A program made the translations under genes and the position numbers. 46,856 nucleotides of DNA, taken from sequence record PZ379178.1; one strand, given 5' to 3'. Of the stretch, positions 1 to 46,856 are shown one piece after another. The stretch is from a phage. Positions within the stretch are counted from its first letter, which is position 1. Every line of letters starts with the position of its first letter. The notes under the pieces were generated by a model. That model saw only the letters and a list, made by a program, of their open reading frames with translations, ran no database searches and was not told where the DNA came from.

Positions 1-390
1 CCGGCTGTTATCGCGATAGATGAGTGCTTAACTGGAGACACGATGATAACCACCGATTCAGGGATGATGAGGATTGATAGCGAAGACCTTATCAATCATA
101 AAATAAAATGCATAAACGAAAGCACTGGTGATTACTTCTATCATAAGCCAAAAAGAGTTTTTACTAATGGTGTAAGACATGTATCATCAATTAAATTAGA
201 AAGCGGAGAGGAAATAAAATGCACGAGTACACACAAACTTTATTCGAACGGCTGCTGGGTAGGAGCGGGAAAACTTCGTATTGGGATGAATCTGTCGCTA
301 GACGGCTCGCAGGACAAATTTACGAAAAAGCTCCTGCGTGCAAGTGTGGCTGTGGTGAAAAAGTTATGCCGCATTCAAGCAAGGGGTTAG
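1..390 (+). CDS. Helicase N-fragment (3-prime end, continues from window end) fused to split-intein N-half
   Basis: Frame-1 ORF open from nt 1 to stop 388-390; PAVIAIDE (helicase motif II) then Cys codon 25-27 starting intein block A CLTGDT and block B GEEIKCTSTH; joins in frame with ORF 46437..46856. Confidence 0.6.
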   Translation, partial: PAVIAIDECLTGDTMITTDSGMMRIDSEDLINHKIKCINESTGDYFYHKPKRVFTNGVRHVSSIKLESGEEIKCTSTHKLYSNGCWVGAGKLRIGMNLSLDGSQDKFTKKLLRASVAVVKKLCRIQARG

Positions 391-1073
391 GCGTACTTCT
401 TAAGAACCCTTTCGATTTCTATTTGGATTACAGAACGGGCCATCATAATTCAACCGTCAACCCATCAATGGAGGTTGATGACTTTTTACATCAAAACATT
501 CTTGCGGCAATGGCTGGTGATGGTTGCTTGATTAAAAATACAGAAAAAGGAACGCATAGGCTATCTTGGAATATGGGAAATAAGGAGCACGCACTAAGCA
601 AGGTTGAAAGGTTTGCAAAACTAAACCCTAGATACAGGGAGAAGAAAAACCCTGGATTTGGCGACAACTGGTTTTGCGTATCAACATCATGTACGAAAGT
701 TCTGGATTCATATGCTGATAAGTACGGAAATTCTAAGGATGGTTACGATATTGGAAAGATATGCAGAGAGCTTAATCCAGTTGGTTGGGCTGCTTACTTT
801 GGTGATGATGGTCATTGCACTGTAAGCTCAGGGAAGAGGGTTGTAGAAATCCACACCGAATCATTTAGCAGGCGTGAAGTTCAATCAGTAGTTGATGCGC
901 TAATAGCATTTATTGCTAATGACGGAGTTAAGGTTAGAAGCTATATTGGCGGCAAGAAAAAGAGAGAGCTTTACTCAGTATCAATAACAACGAGGTCGGC
1001 ACAAGATGAGTTTTTTAAGAGAATTAGTAAGCACATGGAAAATGGCGTGGAATACAAAATCAAGCAAAATTAA
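366..1073 (+). CDS. LAGLIDADG-family homing endonuclease, free-standing ORF between intein halves
   Basis: Frame-0 ORF 219..1073 with two LAGLIDADG-like motifs (LAAMAGDGCL and AAYFGDDGHC); start 366 is first ATG with GGTGA-like SD, 219 is an alternative; overlaps both intein-half ORFs in a different frame. Confidence 0.55.
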   Translation: MPHSSKGLGVLLKNPFDFYLDYRTGHHNSTVNPSMEVDDFLHQNILAAMAGDGCLIKNTEKGTHRLSWNMGNKEHALSKVERFAKLNPRYREKKNPGFGDNWFCVSTSCTKVLDSYADKYGNSKDGYDIGKICRELNPVGWAAYFGDDGHCTVSSGKRVVEIHTESFSRREVQSVVDALIAFIANDGVKVRSYIGGKKKRELYSVSITTRSAQDEFFKRISKHMENGVEYKIKQN

Positions 1074-2715
1074 AGACATCTCACCCATTGGCAAGGAACT
1101 TGTTTGGGATATAGAGATGCCTGAGCACCATAATTTCATTGCTGACGGGGTCGTGGCACATAATTGCCACATGGTGGACCATATGGATATCGTAGAAGCT
1201 GAAGAGAATGAGGAAACATTCGAGCAGATGAGCACGAAGAAGGGTGAGATGGTCTTTAAGGATGGTGTGAATACCGGGCTTCTTGGCACTGGTCGCGCGC
1301 AATACACGTTAATCATTACCGAAATGAAGCGTCGATGCAAGGAGAAGTACGGTCGCGAACTTCGTATCTTTGGGTTAACTGGTAGCCCGTACCGTAACAA
1401 CGACCACATTGTAGTTAGTAACCCAAATGTCCGTGGATTCTGGCGCAAAACTGTAATGCAAGTGCCAACCAGCTACCTTGTTGACTTGGGGTTTGTTGTT
1501 CCTACTGTCTACGGTGAAGTTGGTGATTTGGGCTACGACCTTAGTGAGTTCACTCCTGATGGAAGTGATGGGGTTAAGGACTTCAGCAAGAAAGAAATGG
1601 ATGCGATGGCTGCAAAGATTCACGAAAACCAAACGATGACACAAAAGATAATGGGATTTGCTGCTAAGTTTATGGAAACAAGGAATGCTGCATTGGTAAC
1701 TTGCGCTGGCAAACAGCATTGCGAGGAGGCGGCAGCCGCACTTCCAGAAGGTGTTACTTGGGCGATAGTTACCAACTCCACTGGTGAGAAGAAGCGTAGA
1801 GAGATACTTGAGAAGGCAGCCAACGGAGAATATAAGTTCATATTTCAGATTGGTTGCCTCACAACTGGCGTAAACTGCCCCCCGTGGGATACAAGCATTA
1901 TCCTGAGGAAGGTTGGTAGCATTACTCTACTCATTCAGTTGCTTGGTCGTGGTATGCGTATCCTTAAGAAGAAGCACAAAGAAGCTGGAATGGTAAAAGA
2001 TGACCATGTTGTTCTTGATTTTGCTGGAACGCTTGATGATATGGCTGAACTTTACTTCGACCCAATTATAGAAGAGGTACAAGACCAGAAATTTAGGTCA
2101 GCAAGAAAGCGTGGTGATGAGCCAAGAATCTGTCCGGTATGCTCTTATGGGAACTCTCCATTCGCCAGGCGCTGCAATAACGTAATTGACGGGAAGCGCT
2201 GTGAGCACTTCTTTCAGTTTAGACTGTGTGAAGATATAGCGGACCCACAGACCAAAGCTATCATCAAGAAAGGATGCGGTGAGAAGAATGATATTGCAGC
2301 TAAGAATTGCAGATGCTGTGGTGAGATGCTCATAGACCCGAATGCTAAGTTATCAGGAAAAATGTATCGTAAGGGGGACTGGTTGCGAGTTTATGACTTC
2401 AAGATTGGGTTAACAAAGAACCAGTCAGGGATTGTTGCTTCATATGAGGTAATGGCTCATAGTGGAGATAAGTTCCGAGCTTATGAAACATTCTTCCCGG
2501 AGTCAGACCATCGTGTTTGTTCTGTCAAATGGAAGGCGTTTTGCTCAACTCACATCGAGAACAGGACTGAGGCTTTTAGGATTGGCAGATTGCGTAATGC
2601 TAAAATGATTATGACAAATGCACATCTTTTCCGTGCGCCGCTAAGGATTACGCACCGCAAGAATCAGAAGTCGCAAGATATTATCGCCAACAAATCATTT
2701 ACGATGGAGGATTGA
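1006..2715 (+). CDS. Split-intein C-half fused to helicase C-terminal fragment (SF2 DExH helicase with Cys-rich tail)
   Basis: N-terminus KELVWDIEMPEHHNFIADGVVAHN then C-H (intein blocks F/G, HN ending at 1164, +1 Cys at 1165-1167); downstream QLLGRGMR (helicase motif VI) and CxxC clusters; alternative start ATG 1042. Confidence 0.6.
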   Translation: MSFLRELVSTWKMAWNTKSSKIKDISPIGKELVWDIEMPEHHNFIADGVVAHNCHMVDHMDIVEAEENEETFEQMSTKKGEMVFKDGVNTGLLGTGRAQYTLIITEMKRRCKEKYGRELRIFGLTGSPYRNNDHIVVSNPNVRGFWRKTVMQVPTSYLVDLGFVVPTVYGEVGDLGYDLSEFTPDGSDGVKDFSKKEMDAMAAKIHENQTMTQKIMGFAAKFMETRNAALVTCAGKQHCEEAAAALPEGVTWAIVTNSTGEKKRREILEKAANGEYKFIFQIGCLTTGVNCPPWDTSIILRKVGSITLLIQLLGRGMRILKKKHKEAGMVKDDHVVLDFAGTLDDMAELYFDPIIEEVQDQKFRSARKRGDEPRICPVCSYGNSPFARRCNNVIDGKRCEHFFQFRLCEDIADPQTKAIIKKGCGEKNDIAAKNCRCCGEMLIDPNAKLSGKMYRKGDWLRVYDFKIGLTKNQSGIVASYEVMAHSGDKFRAYETFFPESDHRVCSVKWKAFCSTHIENRTEAFRIGRLRNAKMIMTNAHLFRAPLRITHRKNQKSQDIIANKSFTMED

Positions 2716-3136: not shown

Positions 3137-3185
3137 CACGAATTGCTAAAGACGAATTGGTGAGTTGGTGTATTATCAACTCATC
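3134..3185 (+). promoter_or_regulatory. Box-hairpin-leader cassette (candidate phage promoter)
   Basis: Box TAGCACGAATTGCTAAA 3134-3150, hairpin GAGTTG/CAACTC, TATTAT 3171-3176, leader CATCGAAACG from 3182; ATG 3215. Confidence 0.5.
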
Positions 3186-3214
3186 GAAACGAAACACACA
3201 AAGAGAGAAAGAAA

Positions 3215-4002: not shown

Positions 4003-4254
4003 ATGTTTGGATTAGATTTCCAGCCAAAGCATTATGATTTAGTGCATGGTAGTAGCGGAGCCAGGTTTAGAGCGATACCTATTGATGACTGGTTTCCACC
4101 TGACTATGTGGATGTTAACGCGAAGACGAAGGACGGTAAATGGGTACAGATTTACTACTCTCCAGCGTGCGGTAATCTGTGCATGACAGACATGGACCAA
4201 AAATTAGCAATTAGTGCTGATTTGTTGGATTTCTGGTTAAAAGAGGTTGAATGA
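4003..4254 (+). CDS. Hypothetical protein
   Basis: 83-aa ORF, 2 nt after previous stop. Confidence 0.5.
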   Translation: MFGLDFQPKHYDLVHGSSGARFRAIPIDDWFPPDYVDVNAKTKDGKWVQIYYSPACGNLCMTDMDQKLAISADLLDFWLKEVE

Positions 4255-4335: not shown

Positions 4336-5472
4336 ATGGCAGCAGCAAAGATTACCAACGAGCAATTAATCGAAGAACTGAAAAACGGCCTTACTAACAA
4401 GGCGATTGCAGAGAAGTATGGTATGAACATTCGTAACGTTGAGATTCGTCGCAGTAAGTTGGCTAAGAGTGGCTTGTTCGGGCATGGTAACGAAGGCATT
4501 AAGAAGCTAGTACCGGACGGATACTTGGTAAAAGGCACTTCGACCATGATTGATGCGGATGGGAATGAGAAGCTGCGTTGGGTTAAGACTTCAATTGATA
4601 ATGAGCGCCTTGAGATTCTGCTTGAGCAAGCACGAGAGGCATTTTGTTCTGACTTACCAAAGGCAGTTGCCAGTGAGTGCCCAGACATTGATTTTGATGA
4701 TGACACGATGGCTATGTATCCGGTTTTCGACCTTCACATTGGCGCAATGGCTCATAAGCATGAGTGCGGTGAAAACTACGACACTGCAACAGCAGAGAAG
4801 GTAATGAATAGCTTCTTTGATTATGCTGTAGATAAGGCTCCTAAATCAATAAATGCGACATTAGTTTTGGGGGGTGATTTTCTGCATTACGACTCTCTAG
4901 AGGCTAAAACACCAGCATCAGGACATATCTTAGACAGCGACAGTCGCTATGCTAAATTGGTTTACGTAGCAATCCGCTCAGTGCGTCGTGCGGTTTCAAG
5001 GATGCTTGAGAAGCACCAAATCATTGATATTAAAGTAATAAGTGGAAATCACGACGAAGCTGGGATGGTTTGGTTGCGTGCAGCATTGGCGGCATTCTAT
5101 GAAGACGAGGAGCGAATTACTGTCGACGTAAGCCCAGCAGCAATGCTGATGACAAGCTTCGGCTCAACATTGATTGGTTATACTCATGGTCACCAGATGC
5201 GAAAAGCTGAAACTCGACTTACAGTAATGGCTACAGACTTTCGTAAACTATTCGGTAACAGCGAATATGTCTATACACACTCGGGCCACTGGCATAGTCA
5301 GAAAATTACAGAAACAAACCTGGGTATCGATGAAGTTCATGGTCAGCTTGGCGCGCCAGATGCCTATTCAGCTAATGGAGGATGGCGCTCAATGCGTCAA
5401 GCAGCGGTAATCGTTTACCATAAGCGTTTTGGTGAGGTTGGTCGATTTATTTGTCGCCCTGAGATGTTCTAA
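4336..5472 (+). CDS. Calcineurin-like metallophosphoesterase with N-terminal HTH-like region
   Basis: Motifs DLHIG, GGDFLHYD, GNHDE, GHQM, GHWH in order typical of metallophosphoesterases; N-terminal LTNKAIAEKYGMNIRNVEIRR resembles a helix-turn-helix. Confidence 0.6.
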   Translation: MAAAKITNEQLIEELKNGLTNKAIAEKYGMNIRNVEIRRSKLAKSGLFGHGNEGIKKLVPDGYLVKGTSTMIDADGNEKLRWVKTSIDNERLEILLEQAREAFCSDLPKAVASECPDIDFDDDTMAMYPVFDLHIGAMAHKHECGENYDTATAEKVMNSFFDYAVDKAPKSINATLVLGGDFLHYDSLEAKTPASGHILDSDSRYAKLVYVAIRSVRRAVSRMLEKHQIIDIKVISGNHDEAGMVWLRAALAAFYEDEERITVDVSPAAMLMTSFGSTLIGYTHGHQMRKAETRLTVMATDFRKLFGNSEYVYTHSGHWHSQKITETNLGIDEVHGQLGAPDAYSANGGWRSMRQAAVIVYHKRFGEVGRFICRPEMF

Positions 5473-5473
5473 G

Positions 5474-5546
5474 TAGCACTTTTTGTTAATAAAGCCTCAA
5501 AGGATTGAGGCAAAATGAATAAACGATAACGAGATGAGGAGTTGTA
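5474..5546 (+). promoter_or_regulatory. Box-hairpin-leader cassette, variant box
   Basis: Box TAGCACTTTTTGTTAAT 5474-5490, hairpin GCCTCAA/TTGAGGC, leader AACGAGATGAGGAG; ATG 5547. Confidence 0.45.
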
Positions 5547-6576: not shown

Positions 6577-6612
6577 ACAATCGCCGGAGTAATCCGGCAT
6601 AATTACTACATC
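6561..6612 (+). promoter_or_regulatory. Box-hairpin-leader cassette
   Basis: Box TAGCACGAATTGCTAAA 6561-6577, hairpin CCGGA/TCCGG, CATAAT 6598-6603 (22-nt gap from TTGCTA), leader CATCGAAAAC from 6609; ATG 6635. Confidence 0.5.
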
Positions 6613-6634
6613 GAAAACAACAGAGGATTCAAAA

Positions 6635-26117: not shown

Positions 26118-26603
26118 ATGAAAGAGTTCTTAAATTCTCTTTACGATTATCGCGATGGTCAAATCTTTCATAAAGGAGGTTCAAAGCCATGTGGGTATGG
26201 AAAGCCTAACGGATACATTCAAACTTACGTCTCAAAGACTGGTAAGAAGTATGTTCACAGGATTATTTGGACAATGCATAATGGAGACATCCCAGAAGGC
26301 ATGCAAATTGACCATTTAAATGGCAATAGGAGCGACAACCGCATTGAGAATTTAAGGTGCGCATCAGTAACTGAAAATAGAAGAAATTCAGGAACGAAAT
26401 ATAGGTATCGTAGATTCCCTGGTGTTAATGGTGTAAACTACAATAAGCGCGATAATCTTTGGCATGCAATGATTTCTGATAATGGCGTAGCTAAGAGCCT
26501 TGGTCATTACAAGTCATTTGTTAGTGCATGTGAAGCTAGAATTATCGCAGAAGTAAATCTTGGATACCACGTAAATCACGCGATGCGTGATAGCGTATAT
26601 TAA
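26118..26603 (+). CDS. HNH homing endonuclease (HNH_3-like)
   Basis: MQIDHLNGNRSDNRIENLR motif typical of phage HNH endonucleases; inserted between tail terminator and major tail genes; start 26118 preferred over 26091. Confidence 0.55.
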   Translation: MKEFLNSLYDYRDGQIFHKGGSKPCGYGKPNGYIQTYVSKTGKKYVHRIIWTMHNGDIPEGMQIDHLNGNRSDNRIENLRCASVTENRRNSGTKYRYRRFPGVNGVNYNKRDNLWHAMISDNGVAKSLGHYKSFVSACEARIIAEVNLGYHVNHAMRDSVY

Positions 26604-41041: not shown

Positions 41042-41111
41042 CACGAATTGCTAAAGACAAAATTAACTGGTGGGGTATCATTACCCCATCGAAACGAAAG
41101 AGAGATGTGGA
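41039..41111 (+). promoter_or_regulatory. Box-hairpin-leader cassette
   Basis: Box TAGCACGAATTGCTAAA 41039-41055, hairpin GGGGTA/TACCCC, leader CATCGAAACGAAAGAGAG from 41087. Confidence 0.5.
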
Positions 41112-42229: not shown

Positions 42230-42252
42230 AGCCCCTTTCGGGGCTTTTTTTA
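42230..42252. terminator. Bidirectional terminator between SSB and tail fiber genes
   Basis: AGCCCC-TTTC-GGGGCT followed by T7; convergent gene ends 42219 and 42250. Confidence 0.65.
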
Positions 42253-44778
42253 TTGAAGCGCCATCCTTGAGTTGGTAAATATTAAAGCGTCTCTTTGGTT
42301 ATCGAACTCTACAACGAAGTAATCAGCAAGACTTAATACCATACCAGGTAGCCCATTAAGGTTGATATGCAGGTTTGCAGTGCCAGAGACTGAAGCCTGA
42401 GCAACTCCAAATGTGTGAACCCACTTACCGCCCTCAGTGAATACCTTCCCTAAAGATGCACTACCAAAAATACTGATAACACCATCAGCACCACCTTGAA
42501 TTCTGTTTGCAGAGATACCCCAAACATACCATTTGCCAGCGGTTATATTAAAGACACCATTTATCAATTCGTACTGAGCCGCACCACCCAATTCGTAGTA
42601 TCCAGATGATTGCGAGTGTATACCCCTTGTATCAGAACCTTCACTTGCCGACCCTGTTCCACCAAAGTTGTTCCCACCAGTACCAAAAGGCTTCCTGACT
42701 AAAACAGTTCCGGAATCAGGGTTAAAAACTCGACCTTTAGTAACATATCCTCTAACAGATAAGTCAGATGTACCCGTTATCTTGGCTGTCTGTGATACCA
42801 GTGACTCAACTATAACGTTTGATGTTGAAGAGCCATTCAGGTATGCATCCTTAGCAAAAATAATACTGTTTGAATCAAGAGAGAAACTTTGATGCCCGTC
42901 AGCGTTATCAAACCTGCAACCGTAAGTAATAAGGTTTGAGTTCGACAACTCAATGTTATTAATGTAGGAATGCTCAGCAAAGAAAACAGACGTATCGATG
43001 AGCTTCAAAACCCTTGGGAGTTCAGCTCCCTCACCTACGTTAATTGCCCCACCAGTTGCTATCGCTTCAAACCATACGTTAGACAATCCGCAAGGTGATG
43101 TTGGGCAATCTCCAGGTTTATTCTTTAACCTTATACCGCCGCCAGCAGAGGCCTCCATTATTGAATCCCTAATCCACCACCCACCAATTCCTCCAGCGCC
43201 AGGGTTCGTTGCGCTACTTGTGCTTGTCGCATCTAGCATTACTGAATATTGAGAGATTGTATCTGAGTGGTATCCGTATAAAGTGTCCGCTCCTATATGC
43301 ATTTCGTCATGAGCTTTTGCTCGATACCCGTAATTCGCATTTCTAATACTTACGTTTCTGTAGGTATTTCCAATGTTGCCAGCATTTTTCCTTATACCAA
43401 CATCCAGGTCATTGAAGTAAAGCCTATCCAATACAACCCTTCCAGCATAAGGGCCATCCGGGAATTGAAAGCCGTTATTACCTTGTATTGCAGTACCTGT
43501 AAACTGCAAATCCGATAAATGCTTTTGCCTCCAGTGCGGAACCGATAGCGTTGAGGTGAGTCCGGTTTCAAAAGGTTTAACACTTATTACGGTATTATAT
43601 CCAGAGCCTGATATGTTCCTGCCAGCAAAGGAGTAGTTATTACTCTCATAAGTTCCCGGGCTTATAACTACCGACCCGCCATCGCCAGCGGCTTCTATTG
43701 CTGAAGATATTGAGCCGCTATAGCTTGATGTGCTTTTTGAATCTGTATTTAAAATTGATGATAATTCGCTCTTTGAGTAAACATCAAGGTTGGTTCTTGC
43801 TTCTGCTTTATCTGCAACATCAGATAAATTCAATGATTTTTGAAAAGTCTCATTTTTTGAGTAAACATCAAGCAAGCCTCTTACTCGCTGGGCGCTAGCG
43901 CCGCCAACCTTACTTCCTGATGCGACATAAAGAGCCTCTCTTGAATAGTAAGTTTTGTTTGGTGCCGTGCCAGTCTGAGTTAAATCAATCAACCTGTACG
44001 TATTATCGGATCCGGTTGATGCTGACACTTGTATGTTCTTAACACCAGTAATCCCCCTTGATGACTTAACCTCAATCGCACAAAGCGTGCTATCGGAGTA
44101 GGTTATATTTATCACCTCTGGAGCGTTGATCATTGCTGACTTTTGGCATAGGTATCTAGCTCCTGATTTGAAATCAAACGTATTCCAGTCAAGTTCTGTC
44201 AACTGAGGTGTAAACGAGCCACCGATACCCATATTGGCAAGAGTTACCATTGTGCCAGCATCACCAGCACTATTAATTGCCTCAATAGTAGCATCTCTCG
44301 CTGATGTGGTTGTATCCCTTGCGCTAACGGCAGTAGCGGCGCTCTCTGCGGCAGCAATCTGGCTAGCTAAAGACTCGGCAGCCCCTGTTACTGATTGGTT
44401 TGCTAATTGCTCGAAGCGAGGCCAATCGAAATTATCTTGCCCGATAAATTGCAGCAAACTTTCAATAGAAGTCTCCTTTGACTGATAGTAACGCAGAGTC
44501 TCAGCAACATCCTGAGCTAAACCCTGAACGGTAATGCCATCGTGAGCAAGAATCGCGTAACCAGTTCCGGCAGGAACAGTTTCAGAATTAGGGTTGTAAA
44601 CATTAATCTGAGTGTCGCTGATGATTTCAGAGATGGTATAAATTTTAAGTGGACTGGTTTTAAAAATAATGGTTGCACCTACACGAATAAGTGTAAGTGG
44701 TGCTTTCCATGTTGTCCGGACGCCAGTAACCTCGCCATTTGCGGCTAGCGACGCTGTTCCTAAGTCATAAATTGCCAT
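42250..44778 (-). CDS. Tail fiber / tailspike-like protein
   Basis: About 842 aa; central region with repetitive Asn/Gly/Ser-rich beta-helix-like segments; start ATG 44778 preferred over GTG 44808. Confidence 0.6.
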   Translation of the reverse strand: MAIYDLGTASLAANGEVTGVRTTWKAPLTLIRVGATIIFKTSPLKIYTISEIISDTQINVYNPNSETVPAGTGYAILAHDGITVQGLAQDVAETLRYYQSKETSIESLLQFIGQDNFDWPRFEQLANQSVTGAAESLASQIAAAESAATAVSARDTTTSARDATIEAINSAGDAGTMVTLANMGIGGSFTPQLTELDWNTFDFKSGARYLCQKSAMINAPEVINITYSDSTLCAIEVKSSRGITGVKNIQVSASTGSDNTYRLIDLTQTGTAPNKTYYSREALYVASGSKVGGASAQRVRGLLDVYSKNETFQKSLNLSDVADKAEARTNLDVYSKSELSSILNTDSKSTSSYSGSISSAIEAAGDGGSVVISPGTYESNNYSFAGRNISGSGYNTVISVKPFETGLTSTLSVPHWRQKHLSDLQFTGTAIQGNNGFQFPDGPYAGRVVLDRLYFNDLDVGIRKNAGNIGNTYRNVSIRNANYGYRAKAHDEMHIGADTLYGYHSDTISQYSVMLDATSTSSATNPGAGGIGGWWIRDSIMEASAGGGIRLKNKPGDCPTSPCGLSNVWFEAIATGGAINVGEGAELPRVLKLIDTSVFFAEHSYINNIELSNSNLITYGCRFDNADGHQSFSLDSNSIIFAKDAYLNGSSTSNVIVESLVSQTAKITGTSDLSVRGYVTKGRVFNPDSGTVLVRKPFGTGGNNFGGTGSASEGSDTRGIHSQSSGYYELGGAAQYELINGVFNITAGKWYVWGISANRIQGGADGVISIFGSASLGKVFTEGGKWVHTFGVAQASVSGTANLHINLNGLPGMVLSLADYFVVEFDNQRDALIFTNSRMALQ

Positions 44779-44802
44779 TGTGTAAAGTCTCCATTTGTAA
44801 AG

Positions 44803-44819
44803 TAGCACTAATTGCTAAA
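44803..44819. promoter_or_regulatory. Isolated box copy TAGCACTAATTGCTAAA with ambiguous orientation
   Basis: Box overlaps tail fiber 5-prime region (start 44778, minus) and lies beside primase terminator hairpin 44853-44866; no downstream leader on plus strand. Confidence 0.35.
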
Positions 44820-44843
44820 GTGGATTGTATCATCTTTCAGGTA

Positions 44844-44866
44844 TAAAAAAACCTCCCGAAGGAGGT
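44844..44866 (-). terminator. Rho-independent terminator after primase gene (minus strand)
   Basis: CCTCC-CGAA-GGAGG with A7 on plus strand (T-run on minus). Confidence 0.55.
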
Positions 44867-45792
44867 TAGTCTAGTAATTCGTTTGCCTTGTATATTCTCT
44901 TTCTTATGCCTGACTTGAAAAAATTACCATCATTTGGAATTACAATATCAAGATTGCGATCGTCAGCAACGGCAAGTAAATCAAAAGAGTTGCGAGTACA
45001 AGCGACGCGTAACTTGTAGTTCCTAAGCGCATAAGCAACCATTTCCATGTTGTAGCTGGAGTGGCAAACAAGCACGCAGCGATTTCCAGTAGCAAGATGA
45101 ACGCGAACACCATCAATCCAATTATCGACCAGATAAGCGTACTCATCATCTTTAAAGGTGCCAATAATAGAAACAGACTGGCGAGTATAATCTTTTGCAG
45201 CATAGCTAACATCTCCATCTTCATTGATAAACATTACATTGCACATATCATCTGATATGCCGTCACTATAAGCCATAAAGCACGGTACTGCGTGTATTAG
45301 TTCGCCTGATTTCGTCCTGCCAACATCAAAACCAAATTCGCTATAGATACCCTCGTATGTACTTAGCGGAGTTAATTCTACTCTTTCCGTCCTTTCCATT
45401 ATCTCTAAGCATCTTTCGTGATCAATCTTGGCGCCCATTTTGTATGGTGATGTACGAGATGCTCTTTTGTTTGCTTTTGATATAACCTCTACTGGAACGA
45501 GATTCAGCCAATCACCAAGCGTATCTATTGTTTCGCTATAACTCATTCCCGAGCATTTCATAACCCAGCCAACACCAGAATCATTTCCGCACTGGTTGCA
45601 TATTGCTGCGCCATTTCCCTTTTCCTGACCTAACTCATCAGTGAAGCGAAACCTATCCCTGCCAAAGCAGTAAGGGCACGGACCATGTTTCTTGCTGAGA
45701 TTCTCCTTTGTCCATCCAAGGTTCGATGAGTAGAATTCGCCCCACATTCCCTTCATTTTTGCTATCACTTCGCTCTTATCATGGTGACTCAT
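44866..45792 (-). CDS. DNA primase-like protein (zinc-binding domain)
   Basis: N-terminal CPYC-x17-CNQC zinc-ribbon; start 45792 with GGAGG SD; promoter box upstream (45844-45860). Confidence 0.5.
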   Translation of the reverse strand: MSHHDKSEVIAKMKGMWGEFYSSNLGWTKENLSKKHGPCPYCFGRDRFRFTDELGQEKGNGAAICNQCGNDSGVGWVMKCSGMSYSETIDTLGDWLNLVPVEVISKANKRASRTSPYKMGAKIDHERCLEIMERTERVELTPLSTYEGIYSEFGFDVGRTKSGELIHAVPCFMAYSDGISDDMCNVMFINEDGDVSYAAKDYTRQSVSIIGTFKDDEYAYLVDNWIDGVRVHLATGNRCVLVCHSSYNMEMVAYALRNYKLRVACTRNSFDLLAVADDRNLDIVIPNDGNFFKSGIRKRIYKANELLD

Positions 45793-45860
45793 AGTTACCT
45801 CCATAAACAATAAAGGCACTATACACAATGTATAGCGCCACTGTTTATCAATTCGTGCTA
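45793..45860 (-). promoter_or_regulatory. Box-hairpin-leader cassette (minus orientation)
   Basis: Reverse-complement box TAGCACGAATTGATAAA (45844-45860), palindrome CTATACATTGTGTATAG, GGAGG SD; precedes primase ATG 45792. Confidence 0.5.
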
Positions 45861-46340
45861 TTTCCCTTGCTCTTTATCTTTTCGTGCTGCTTCGTTAGCG
45901 GCCTTAATCTTGCGCCATGAGCGACACTCTGGTTTAGTTGCTAGCTCAGCCTCAGTAACAACACGCAGCATATGACGCTTCTTGCAACGTAGAGTTAGCG
46001 GTTTCCCGTTACCGTCGAATTGCAGATCTGGTCGGCAGAATGTAGCGCGAAAACCTTCTCCATTTCGCTTATAGTAGTTGTGCGACAACTGAGCGCCACG
46101 CGCAGAAATCATCCCGCGATCAAACCATTGCTCTACAGTCTGGTGAGATACATTTAACTGCTTGGCGATATTGGCCTTCGTGCCGTAGAAATCAAGAACC
46201 ATCTCCAGACGAGCTCGTAGCCCAGCCTTTACTTCATCTTTCAATACGTAGTAGCCTGACGGTCGTTTGCGCTGTTTCTTGTCTTGCGTGCGGATGGTTC
46301 CGTTATTGCCGTTGATAGTTCGCTTGTCAATTTCACACAT
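45858..46340 (-). CDS. HTH-type DNA-binding protein (putative regulator)
   Basis: 160 aa, basic; TKANIAKQLNVSHQTVEQW resembles helix-turn-helix. Confidence 0.45.
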   Translation of the reverse strand: MCEIDKRTINGNNGTIRTQDKKQRKRPSGYYVLKDEVKAGLRARLEMVLDFYGTKANIAKQLNVSHQTVEQWFDRGMISARGAQLSHNYYKRNGEGFRATFCRPDLQFDGNGKPLTLRCKKRHMLRVVTEAELATKPECRSWRKIKAANEAARKDKEQGK

Positions 46341-46363
46341 CTCATTACCTCAATAGCACTTTT

Positions 46364-46436
46364 TGTTAAACAATAGGTTCGATAATTGCTATTATACAGC
46401 AATGCAACGAACTAACAAACTGTAAGGGTATTTAAA
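46364..46436 (+). promoter_or_regulatory. Box cassette, variant box
   Basis: Box TAGCACTTTTTGTTAAA 46364-46380, TATTAT, leader CAATGCAACGAAC; precedes helicase ATG 46437. Confidence 0.45.
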
Positions 46437-46856
46437 ATGCTTCCAGTAGAGCGCTTAGTGGCGAACTTTGATAAAGAGAAAATTAAACAGATTCAGAAAG
46501 ATTACCAGTTTGGAGACATAACGCCTTACGAATTCCAGTGCGTGACATTTGACGCAATCGGTAAGGCTATTGGCAAGTACGAAGCGCCATTCATCGCAGA
46601 CCTGTCGGTGTCTGCTGGTAAGACAATTATACTCGCCATGATTGGGAAACGAATGGAACAGCTTGGCCTTCCTTACATGGTCCTATCTCGCCAGTCAGAG
46701 ATTATCAGCCAGAACGCAGAGGAACTTCGTAATTTCGGCATCCGTAATAGCGTCTATTGCGCTGGCCTTAACGTTAAATCAGTTTACTACCCAACCATAG
46801 TGGCTAGCGAGGGTACGGCTGCCAACGGCTTATTTAAGGGGCTTGGTGACTATGTT
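46437..46856 (+). CDS. Helicase N-fragment, 5-prime part (runs off window end, continues at nt 1)
   Basis: ATG 46437 is 73 nt downstream of promoter box 46364; Walker A SVSAGKT; 140 complete codons to window end, in frame with nt 1 ORF. Confidence 0.6.
   Translation, partial: MLPVERLVANFDKEKIKQIQKDYQFGDITPYEFQCVTFDAIGKAIGKYEAPFIADLSVSAGKTIILAMIGKRMEQLGLPYMVLSRQSEIISQNAEELRNFGIRNSVYCAGLNVKSVYYPTIVASEGTAANGLFKGLGDYV

Follow-up and report, generated by a model that had tools for sequence, protein, structure and literature searches.

What does a promoter element do when it stands alone, and points backwards, in front of a phage tail-fibre gene? The question is raised by the DNA of a phage (sequence record PZ379178.1), which was analysed over its whole length of 46,856 nucleotides (nt), hereafter the window. 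The window is a T1-like coliphage of the Drexlerviridae: Escherichia phages vB_Ec-G8, ES and AN_ECEAS, the last of which is classed in this family (subfamily Braunvirinae), show ~91% identity to the region, and mapping of the vB_Ec-G8 proteins yields a complete T1-like gene set. Upstream of its lateral tail-fibre gene, at 44803-44819 on the plus strand, lies an exact copy of the 17-mer TAGCACTAATTGCTAAA, just where a preliminary description of this DNA had placed it. The 17-mer belongs to a family with 18 copies in the window at up to three mismatches (0.22 expected; none of 100 shuffles reached 18). The tail-fibre copy is isolated, as had been noticed, since the CATCGAAACG-like leader is absent within ~1.8 kilobases (kb) on each side (nearest 42991) and no plus-strand gene follows, apart from a 43-amino-acid TTG open reading frame (ORF) antisense to the primase gene. 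We argue here that the box is a marbox, set backwards at a fixed distance from the tail-fibre promoter, where it probably works as an off-switch.

The box family matches the marbox

Marboxes are the asymmetric sites of ~20 base pairs (bp) of the monomeric AraC-family activators MarA, SoxS and Rob in enterobacteria. The Escherichia coli consensus has been published as GCAHWWWWTGYYAAA (PMC6900184) and, in another form, as gcannwwntgnnaaa (PMC12052159), and the soxbox is described as having GCAC for its A site and CAAA for its B site (PMC9638938). The tail-fibre box agrees with GCAHWWWWTGYYAAA at 15 of 15 positions (44805-44819) and is one of four perfect matches in the window, in which a search at up to one mismatch finds 17 matches against 1.44 expected, a number reached by none of 100 shuffles. 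The full 20-bp marbox, gTAGCACTAATTGCTAAAgt, occupies 44802-44821 on the plus strand, its core GCACTAATTGCTAAA (44805-44819) falling within the 17-mer. From a 20-mer form that is said to go back to Martin et al. in 1999 and reportedly reads AYnGCACnnWnnRYYAAAYn, the tail-fibre copy departs by two mismatches. This identity had escaped the preliminary description, as had the tail-fibre promoter that lies between the nearby terminator and the box.

The same description took the box to be near-palindromic and its orientation to be ambiguous, which the family profile contradicts. Among the 18 canonical copies, the G, C and A of GCAC are present in all 18 and the last C in 16, and the 3' half is degenerate in the manner of a marbox, TG[C/T/A]TAA[A/T], with conserved positions that do not belong to a dyad. 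The phage consensus coincides with the E. coli marbox position by position, a GCAC element on one side and a YAAA element (YYAAA in its conserved form) on the other giving the site a defined orientation, and all 18 canonical copies face their gene. Read by these conserved asymmetric positions, the isolated box is forward on the plus strand, and hence backward relative to the tail fibre.

The box family itself has been published, as a 21-nt repeat, aaATAGCACnnnTTGnTAAAA, with 21 copies in phage TLS and a function that was left open; similar repeats were reported in T1, Rtp and Rogue1, and the options named were stoperators, enhancers and UP elements (PMC11447400). The tail-fibre copy conforms to aaATAGCACnnnTTGnTAAAA and departs from the published layout, in which the repeats run along transcription ~76 nt before a start codon. 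We discarded the UP element, which is A/T-rich and has no conserved G/C core, for a box with invariant GCAC and TG; the AAA upstream of the box is the only possible UP-like subsite. Our literature searches returned no paper linking the repeats, or T1-like phages, to marboxes or to MarA, SoxS or Rob. Although the repeat family and marbox biology are known already, the reading of the phage repeats as class II marboxes, and of the tail-fibre copy as a backward marbox on a start site, appears to be new in the literature searched.

Canonical copies have class II promoter geometry

Each of the 18 canonical copies heads a cassette in which aaaTAGCAC[G/T][A/T][A/T]TTG[C/t/a]TAA[A/t] is followed by a -10, a leader, a ribosome-binding site and a start codon. 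The -10-like hexamers (TATAAT, CATAAT, TATAGT, TATCAT and similar) start 20-22 nt, mostly 21, past the 15-bp core, and the CATCGAAACG-like sequence sits where transcription should start. In a set of 160 distinct copies, taken from 51 related loci besides the window and phage G8, good -10 hexamers are confined to offsets 20, 21 and 22 (21, 53 and 9 cases, respectively). TTGCTA was tried as an ordinary -35 and rejected, the spacer to the -10 being 22 bp; with no usable -35, the cassettes are therefore best seen as promoters whose -35 region has been replaced by the box. Their cores start at 906, 3136, 5476, 6563, 10010(-), 10790(-), 11410(-), 12660, 13171, 13854, 15199, 18901, 27325, 38606(-), 39364(-), 41041, 45844(-) and 46356 (minus signs marking the minus strand), those at 5476 and 12660 being out of reach of the 17-mer pattern used earlier, and the genes behind them, on either strand, are early, replication, lysis and some structural genes.

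This is the layout of class II marboxes, which face forward and overlap the -35, that of micF being centred at -41.5 (PMC12052159, PMC6900184, PMC9638938). In E. coli K-12, the offset from the core to the -10 is 21 in micF (core GCACTGAATGTCAAA, -10 TAGAAT), where the annotated RNA starts at offset 34, 21 in nfo (-10 TATCAT) and about 20 in fumC. The spacing between marbox and -10 in the phage cassettes equals that of micF and nfo to the base, and with starts inferred from the -10s the canonical copies lie forward over the -35 within the class II range (centred about -36 to -55). Eighteen cassettes with this spacing also occur in Klebsiella phage KP36 (L059), a member of another genus, and eight of the nine perfect consensus matches in the KP36 genome are in cassettes. 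Most likely, the ~18 forward copies in class II position, centred near -41, would make their promoters activator-dependent. Two other promoter types were set aside: a sigma-54 (-24/-12) reading of TAGCAC...TTGC, for which the distance from GG to GC is 2 bp short while every cassette has a sigma-70 -10, and a middle promoter of the T4 MotA-box type, for which the position would be wrong.

Two side observations concern the family. In 13 of the 18 cassettes, the 36 nt after the canonical marbox (e.g. 6578-6613, 3151-3186, 41056-41091 and 45808-45843) contain a perfect inverted repeat of 5-7 bp between marbox and predicted start, against 2.7-2.9 cassettes expected and a maximum of 7-9 in 500 controls; its arms differ between cassettes, and the -10 is either flanked by them or marks the end of the stem-loop. 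The repeat may be a DNA cruciform, a hairpin in read-through RNA or a processing site. Besides the tail-fibre copy, the only family member (17-mer, up to three mismatches) that lacks a cassette is CAGCACTAATTGCTAAT at 4203-4219 on the minus strand, which has neither a -10 nor a leader, lies antisense inside a small plus-strand gene (4003-4251) and is found ~120 nt upstream of the gene at 4336.

A reversed box across the predicted tail-fibre start site

On the minus strand, a helix-turn-helix regulator gene is followed by the primase gene, an intrinsic terminator, the box and the lateral tail-fibre gene (42250-44778), whose N-terminal ~340 amino acids are conserved. The terminator of the primase transcript (44843-44867), which had been described as adjoining the box, was found independently as a stem-loop at 44867-44850 (AACCTCCTTCGGGAGGTT, 7 pairs with a loop of 4) that contains the primase stop codon and runs into a T-tract (TTTTTATACC), that is, a G+C-rich stem-loop followed by a run of T on the transcribed strand. 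Then come, in this order, TGATACAAT, 5 variable nt, the reversed box, ~24 nt with the ribosome-binding site GGAG (44789-44792, conserved in the Rtp-like group) and the ATG at 44778. The box had been said to overlap the 5' region of the tail-fibre gene; it is in fact 25-41 nt upstream of this ATG, in the promoter and 5' untranslated region, and a GTG at 44808 is only the mechanical start of the ORF.

TGATACAAT (44832-44824, minus strand) is an extended -10 element, TGn plus TACAAT, in which TG, TA and the final AT are conserved across lineages and n varies. Its -35 region (44852-44847) reads GTTTTT, which is the T-tract of the terminator, and is poor; a two-hexamer scan of 44700-44950 called no promoter, with a scanner that has no extended -10 model. 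Standard sigma-70 geometry would place the start of transcription 7-8 nt downstream of the -10, at 44816-44817. The reversed marbox starts 5-6 nt past this -10, and its 20 bp would then extend over about -5 to +15 of the predicted promoter; a repressing marbox is expected, whichever way it faces, to overlap the core promoter (about -35 to +25). Marboxes that overlap core promoters repress pbpG, purA and hdeA (PMC12052159).

Promoter and box in related phages

Using the conserved tail-fibre N-terminus, 51 related loci were fetched and their junctions read in the direction of the tail fibre. In 26 of the 52 sequences (the window and 25 of the 51 loci), which come from several lineages, the reversed box recurs with an unchanged distance to the -10, although its flanks have diverged beyond alignment. 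TGnTAnAAT followed after 5-6 nt by TTAGCAATT(C/A)GTGCTA is found in Rtp-like phages, ESCO41, L011, phiEB49, NBD2, L023 and the whole T1 group, with freely varying sequence between and around these elements, T1 itself having a full tail-fibre promoter (TTGCAA-17-TAAAAT, with TG before the -10). Box differences between lineages are mainly at degenerate marbox positions (e.g. TAGCAC-TAA/GAA/AAT/GAT/TAT-TTGCTAA), and the variant TGATAA of locus L004 is one that canonical cassettes use as well. The box is absent from Rogue1-like phages and L049/50, which keep TGATACAAT, from TLS-like phages, which have TTGCAT-17-CATAAT, and from another group with TGCTATTAT. Judged by these sequences, essentially every lineage has a separate host-type promoter for the tail fibre, and the reversed marbox is an element added to it at a fixed distance. 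The marbox match, the geometry and the conserved arrangement of promoter plus box are firm.

This comparison also bears on the three interpretations that the preliminary description had offered, among which an operator acting on tail-fibre expression fits best, the box lying immediately downstream of the conserved tail-fibre promoter and across its predicted start site. The other two lack support. A half cassette or degraded copy finds no counterpart among the related loci, none of the 51 having a complete cassette at the junction. As for a remnant of module exchange, the junction and the first ~340 codons are conserved and similarity breaks only ~1 kb inside the tail-fibre gene, near 43750-43807. 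The vB_Ec-G8 tail fibre is 93.9% identical to the window protein over 343 amino acids only, and while the first ~340 codons are ~94% identical in the closest relatives, the distal two thirds (42250-43800) have no near match in them. These alignments indicate that the receptor-binding module of the tail fibre is exchanged between relatives, with a boundary near 43750-43807.

A proposed off-switch and its reader

From the sequence we infer that host Rob, MarA or SoxS bind the marboxes, that tail-fibre transcription starts at 44816/17 and that the effect of the reversed copy is repression, a full model that we give an even chance of being right. The tail-fibre gene would use its own activator-independent extended -10 promoter just past the primase terminator, and a protein on the reversed marbox would block binding or escape of RNA polymerase there, as well as polymerases leaking through the terminator 30 bp upstream. 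Since the reversed marbox lies over its predicted start, control of the tail fibre would run counter to that of the other phage promoters: the factor that activates these would repress it, the box serving as a repressing operator or roadblock. The reader would most likely be a host protein, with Rob, because it is constitutive and abundant, as the prime candidate. More speculatively, replicating phage DNA with ~20 consensus sites per genome would titrate the factor late in infection and thereby release tail-fibre expression.

Extended to the whole family, the same model holds that Drexlerviridae run nearly all their promoters as class II marbox promoters through host MarA, SoxS or Rob (RamA in Klebsiella), the tail-fibre and regulator promoters being controlled in the opposite sense by backward marboxes; here too, we consider the chances of its being true or false to be evenly balanced. 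The regulator promoter, 1.5 kb away, has a reversed marbox in its early transcribed region and so provides a parallel case to the tail fibre. On the minus strand, TTGTTA (46418-46413), a 16-bp spacer and TATAAT (46396-46391) form this promoter, which a marbox-dependent helicase promoter, with its -10 TATTAT at 46390-46395 on the plus strand, overlaps back-to-back (46354-46439); counted on the regulator transcript, the marbox (46356-46370) occupies about +15 to +31 and lies 13 nt ahead of the regulator ATG at 46340. This arrangement suggests that the two promoters are used mutually exclusively, and the same pairing, P57 and DR11, appears in the published table for TLS (PMC11447400).

A reader encoded by the phage has to be considered: a regulator gene (46340-45858, minus strand, phrog_2856) lies beside the primase gene. 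That it could be of the MarA type was rejected: a profile built from two MarA/SoxS sequences has no match in the window (best E 0.055), which is a weak negative, and the regulator is Cro-like. Its product gives weak Cro-type helix-turn-helix matches in Pfam and PDB sequence searches, and its AlphaFold model (pLDDT 88) has a single helix-turn-helix and no second. This Cro-like protein might instead read the box as a dimer, through the dyad TAGCA-N5-TGCTA, activating the canonical promoters from about -42 and repressing that of the tail fibre, in which case the likeness to a marbox would be convergence or coincidence. In favour of this reading, the regulator (i) is a core gene beside primase in every T1-like locus examined, (ii) is conserved better than primase, e.g. 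89% versus 46% identity in L008, (iii) occurs in 831 phage records, (iv) is modelled with a Cro-type helix-turn-helix that matches Xfaso1 and N15 Cro (TM 0.72) and (v) has an activator-independent sigma-70 promoter of its own (TTGTTA-16-TATAAT), as an immediate-early activator would need, while a dyad centred near -42 is at the classical position of dimeric class II activators.

It is the details of the box that make this explanation unlikely, although it deserves to be taken seriously. The 5-bp arms TAGCA and TGCTA are present, but the conserved flanks and inner positions are asymmetric: a conserved C after TAGCA faces a T before TGCTA, and AAA is found on both flanks. The halves differ in tolerance, the right one accepting changes never seen in the left one, and the orientation is the same in 18 of 18 cassettes. 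The marbox consensus, which a random 15-mer would match with p ~2e-7 (calculated from its degeneracy), accounts for every conserved position, and the distance from marbox to -10 is that of micF and nfo to the base. Under such control, moreover, the tail fibre would be produced first and switched off afterwards, an odd course for a part of the virion. We therefore hold host factors to be likelier readers than the phage regulator, on three grounds: the consensus leaves no conserved position unexplained, even where the dyad is broken, the cassettes keep one orientation, and their spacing is that of chromosomal class II promoters.

Several points weigh against repression by a host factor. (i) The box is, judging by the junctions, dispensable, Rogue1-like, TLS-like and other lineages keeping the promoter without it. 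(ii) Conservation within lineages gives little help, variable columns in T1-like phages being 1 of 16 in the box and 19 of 66 in other non-coding sequence (p = 0.05) and the same comparison in Rtp-like phages not being significant, both at low power. (iii) The literature searched holds no binding, start-site or expression data for T1-like phages. (iv) Repressing a structural gene with the activator of all others calls for a further assumption (titration or dosage control, for example). (v) A conserved Cro-like regulator is encoded beside sites whose 5+5 bp dyad a dimer could read. (vi) The recorded hosts of T1-like phages are all Enterobacterales, which carry MarA/SoxS/Rob-type regulators, so that host range does not discriminate between a host and a phage factor (we suspect that Campylobacter-labelled host records reflect mislabelling).

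Less probable roles of the box

A very unlikely alternative is that the box belongs to a working forward cassette, which would produce a plus-strand transcript from about 44853, antisense to the 3' end of the primase gene, or hold a polymerase there and so interfere with the tail-fibre promoter. Its orientation and flanks (aaaTAGCAC...TAAAg in relatives) are indeed those of canonical cassettes, and TATAAA or CATAAA follows 23 nt past the core in the Rtp-like group. In the window, this -10-like TATAAA is at 44842-44847 on the plus strand, 23 nt past the marbox, where it coincides with the T-tract of the terminator, of which it is merely the reverse, so that its conservation is explained already. 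Canonical cassettes all have offsets of 20-22, none of 23, and a shift of the marbox by 1 bp can abolish activation, as work on a class I promoter showed (PMC6900184). At offset 23, the sequence of the T1 lineage varies and is not that of a promoter, and downstream there is no leader, ribosome-binding site or plausible ORF.

A box without function, left over from an old cassette or from recombination at the tail-fibre locus, seems to us just as improbable. The lineages that lack it and the statistically unclear constraint within lineages would be as expected of a relic, but the retention, in lineages with unalignable flanks, of a consensus that is perfect or nearly so and of its set distance from the -10 would not, and the recombination boundary in the tail-fibre gene is ~1 kb away.

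Least probable, if only slightly, is that the box acts in RNA: it would make up the initial 16 nt of the tail-fibre mRNA and form a 5' UAGCA/UGCUA hairpin that stabilises the message or tunes its translation. The predicted start does put it at the 5' end of the mRNA and a 5-bp stem is predicted in both the window and T1, but folding energy is no better than in shuffles (z = +0.29 and -0.31), natural variants break the stem without compensation (TTATCA in L004, TTACCA in L023), the L004 variant TGATAA recurs in canonical, untranscribed boxes, and canonical boxes, being upstream of the -10, are not transcribed from that promoter.

Genes and insertions around the locus

The primase gene (44866-45792, minus strand; Pfam Zn_Ribbon_Prim, E 7.9e-12) has its own canonical marbox cassette at 45844-45860 on the minus strand and likely starts at the ATG at 45792, preceded by a GGAGG ribosome-binding site; the mechanical ORF start is a TTG at 45828, and the ATG after GGAGG agrees better with how long the G8 protein is and with the way the cassettes are laid out. 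A palindrome at 45815-45839, GGCACTATACA / TGTATAGCGCC, whose 11-bp arms are 91% complementary, covers the -10 of the primase promoter and could be an operator for the adjacent Cro-like regulator.

The helicase gene begins at 46437 and its G8-like part resumes at 1132 (window 1-1131 and 46437-46856). Since the gene is split across its ends, the window is a circular permutation with ~1.1 kb of extra sequence inside or beside the helicase gene; this extra sequence includes the weaker marbox cassette at 906, and AN_ECEAS has an extra ORF at the same place. An HNH-endonuclease-like ORF (26142-26552, plus strand), 38% identical to the HNH gene of G8, lies between the tail terminator and major tail genes and is, in a position unlike that in G8, probably a mobile insertion. 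Finally, the plus-strand gene at 4336-5472 encodes 378 amino acids, with metallophosphoesterase-type motifs (GDFLH, GNHD, GH) after a helix-turn-helix-like segment at the N-terminus, and its product is possibly a further DNA-binding protein. A Sigma70_r4_2 annotation exists for its homologue KP36_062 and was not retained, the window protein having no such hit in current Pfam.

What host control would mean

Transcription control in T1-like phages runs without a polymerase or sigma factor of their own, and the 2024 re-annotation of TLS found only three sigma-70-like promoters (PMC11447400). If the repeats are marboxes, the 21-nt repeats left open in that year would be explained, and with them the promoter set of the whole family at once. 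Phage development would then be wired to the regulon with which the host responds to antibiotic, oxidative and bile stress, a regulon often mutated in clinical isolates for antibiotic resistance (marR, soxR, ramR), and susceptibility to T1-like phages would change with rob, marA and soxS status and with inducers such as salicylate, paraquat, bile salts and dipyridyl. T1-like phages often contaminate laboratories and fermentations, and they are frequently considered for phage therapy. The reversed tail-fibre copy would, for its part, be a simple route to opposite regulation of one virion gene.

Comparison with known systems

The closest system is the mar-sox-rob regulon of E. coli (MarA, SoxS and Rob; RamA elsewhere), with which the phage shares the asymmetric site, to 15 of 15 consensus positions in the tail-fibre copy, the class II orientation of the canonical copies with the marbox-to-(-10) spacing of micF and nfo, and, in the predicted overlap with a core promoter, the layout by which pbpG, purA and hdeA are repressed. 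It differs in that the phage sites are predicted from sequence, lie in the genome of a virulent phage, number ~18-20 per 47 kb and are much nearer to the consensus than chromosomal sites. We know of no chromosomal case in which a marbox covers -5 to +15 of a promoter with an extended -10. The middle and late promoters of Mu (Mor and C) and PRM of lambda (cI) resemble the cassettes in having a good -10, no usable -35 and an activator site near -42 over the -35; they are served by phage-encoded dimers on dyad sites, whereas the box is asymmetric and matches the consensus of a host factor.

The direct repeats of 21 nt in TLS and other T1-like phages are the same element as the box (PMC11447400). 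Those published point along transcription ~76 nt before start codons, whereas the tail-fibre copy points against its gene, 25 nt before the ATG, and TLS has no copy at this junction. The stoperators of mycobacteriophage L5 are likewise many short asymmetric sites spread over a genome, and the tail-fibre copy resembles them in its position in a transcribed leader. They are sites of the phage repressor within transcribed regions and keep one orientation with respect to transcription, whereas the 18 canonical copies of the box stand upstream of a -10 at a fixed distance, which is the architecture of promoters.

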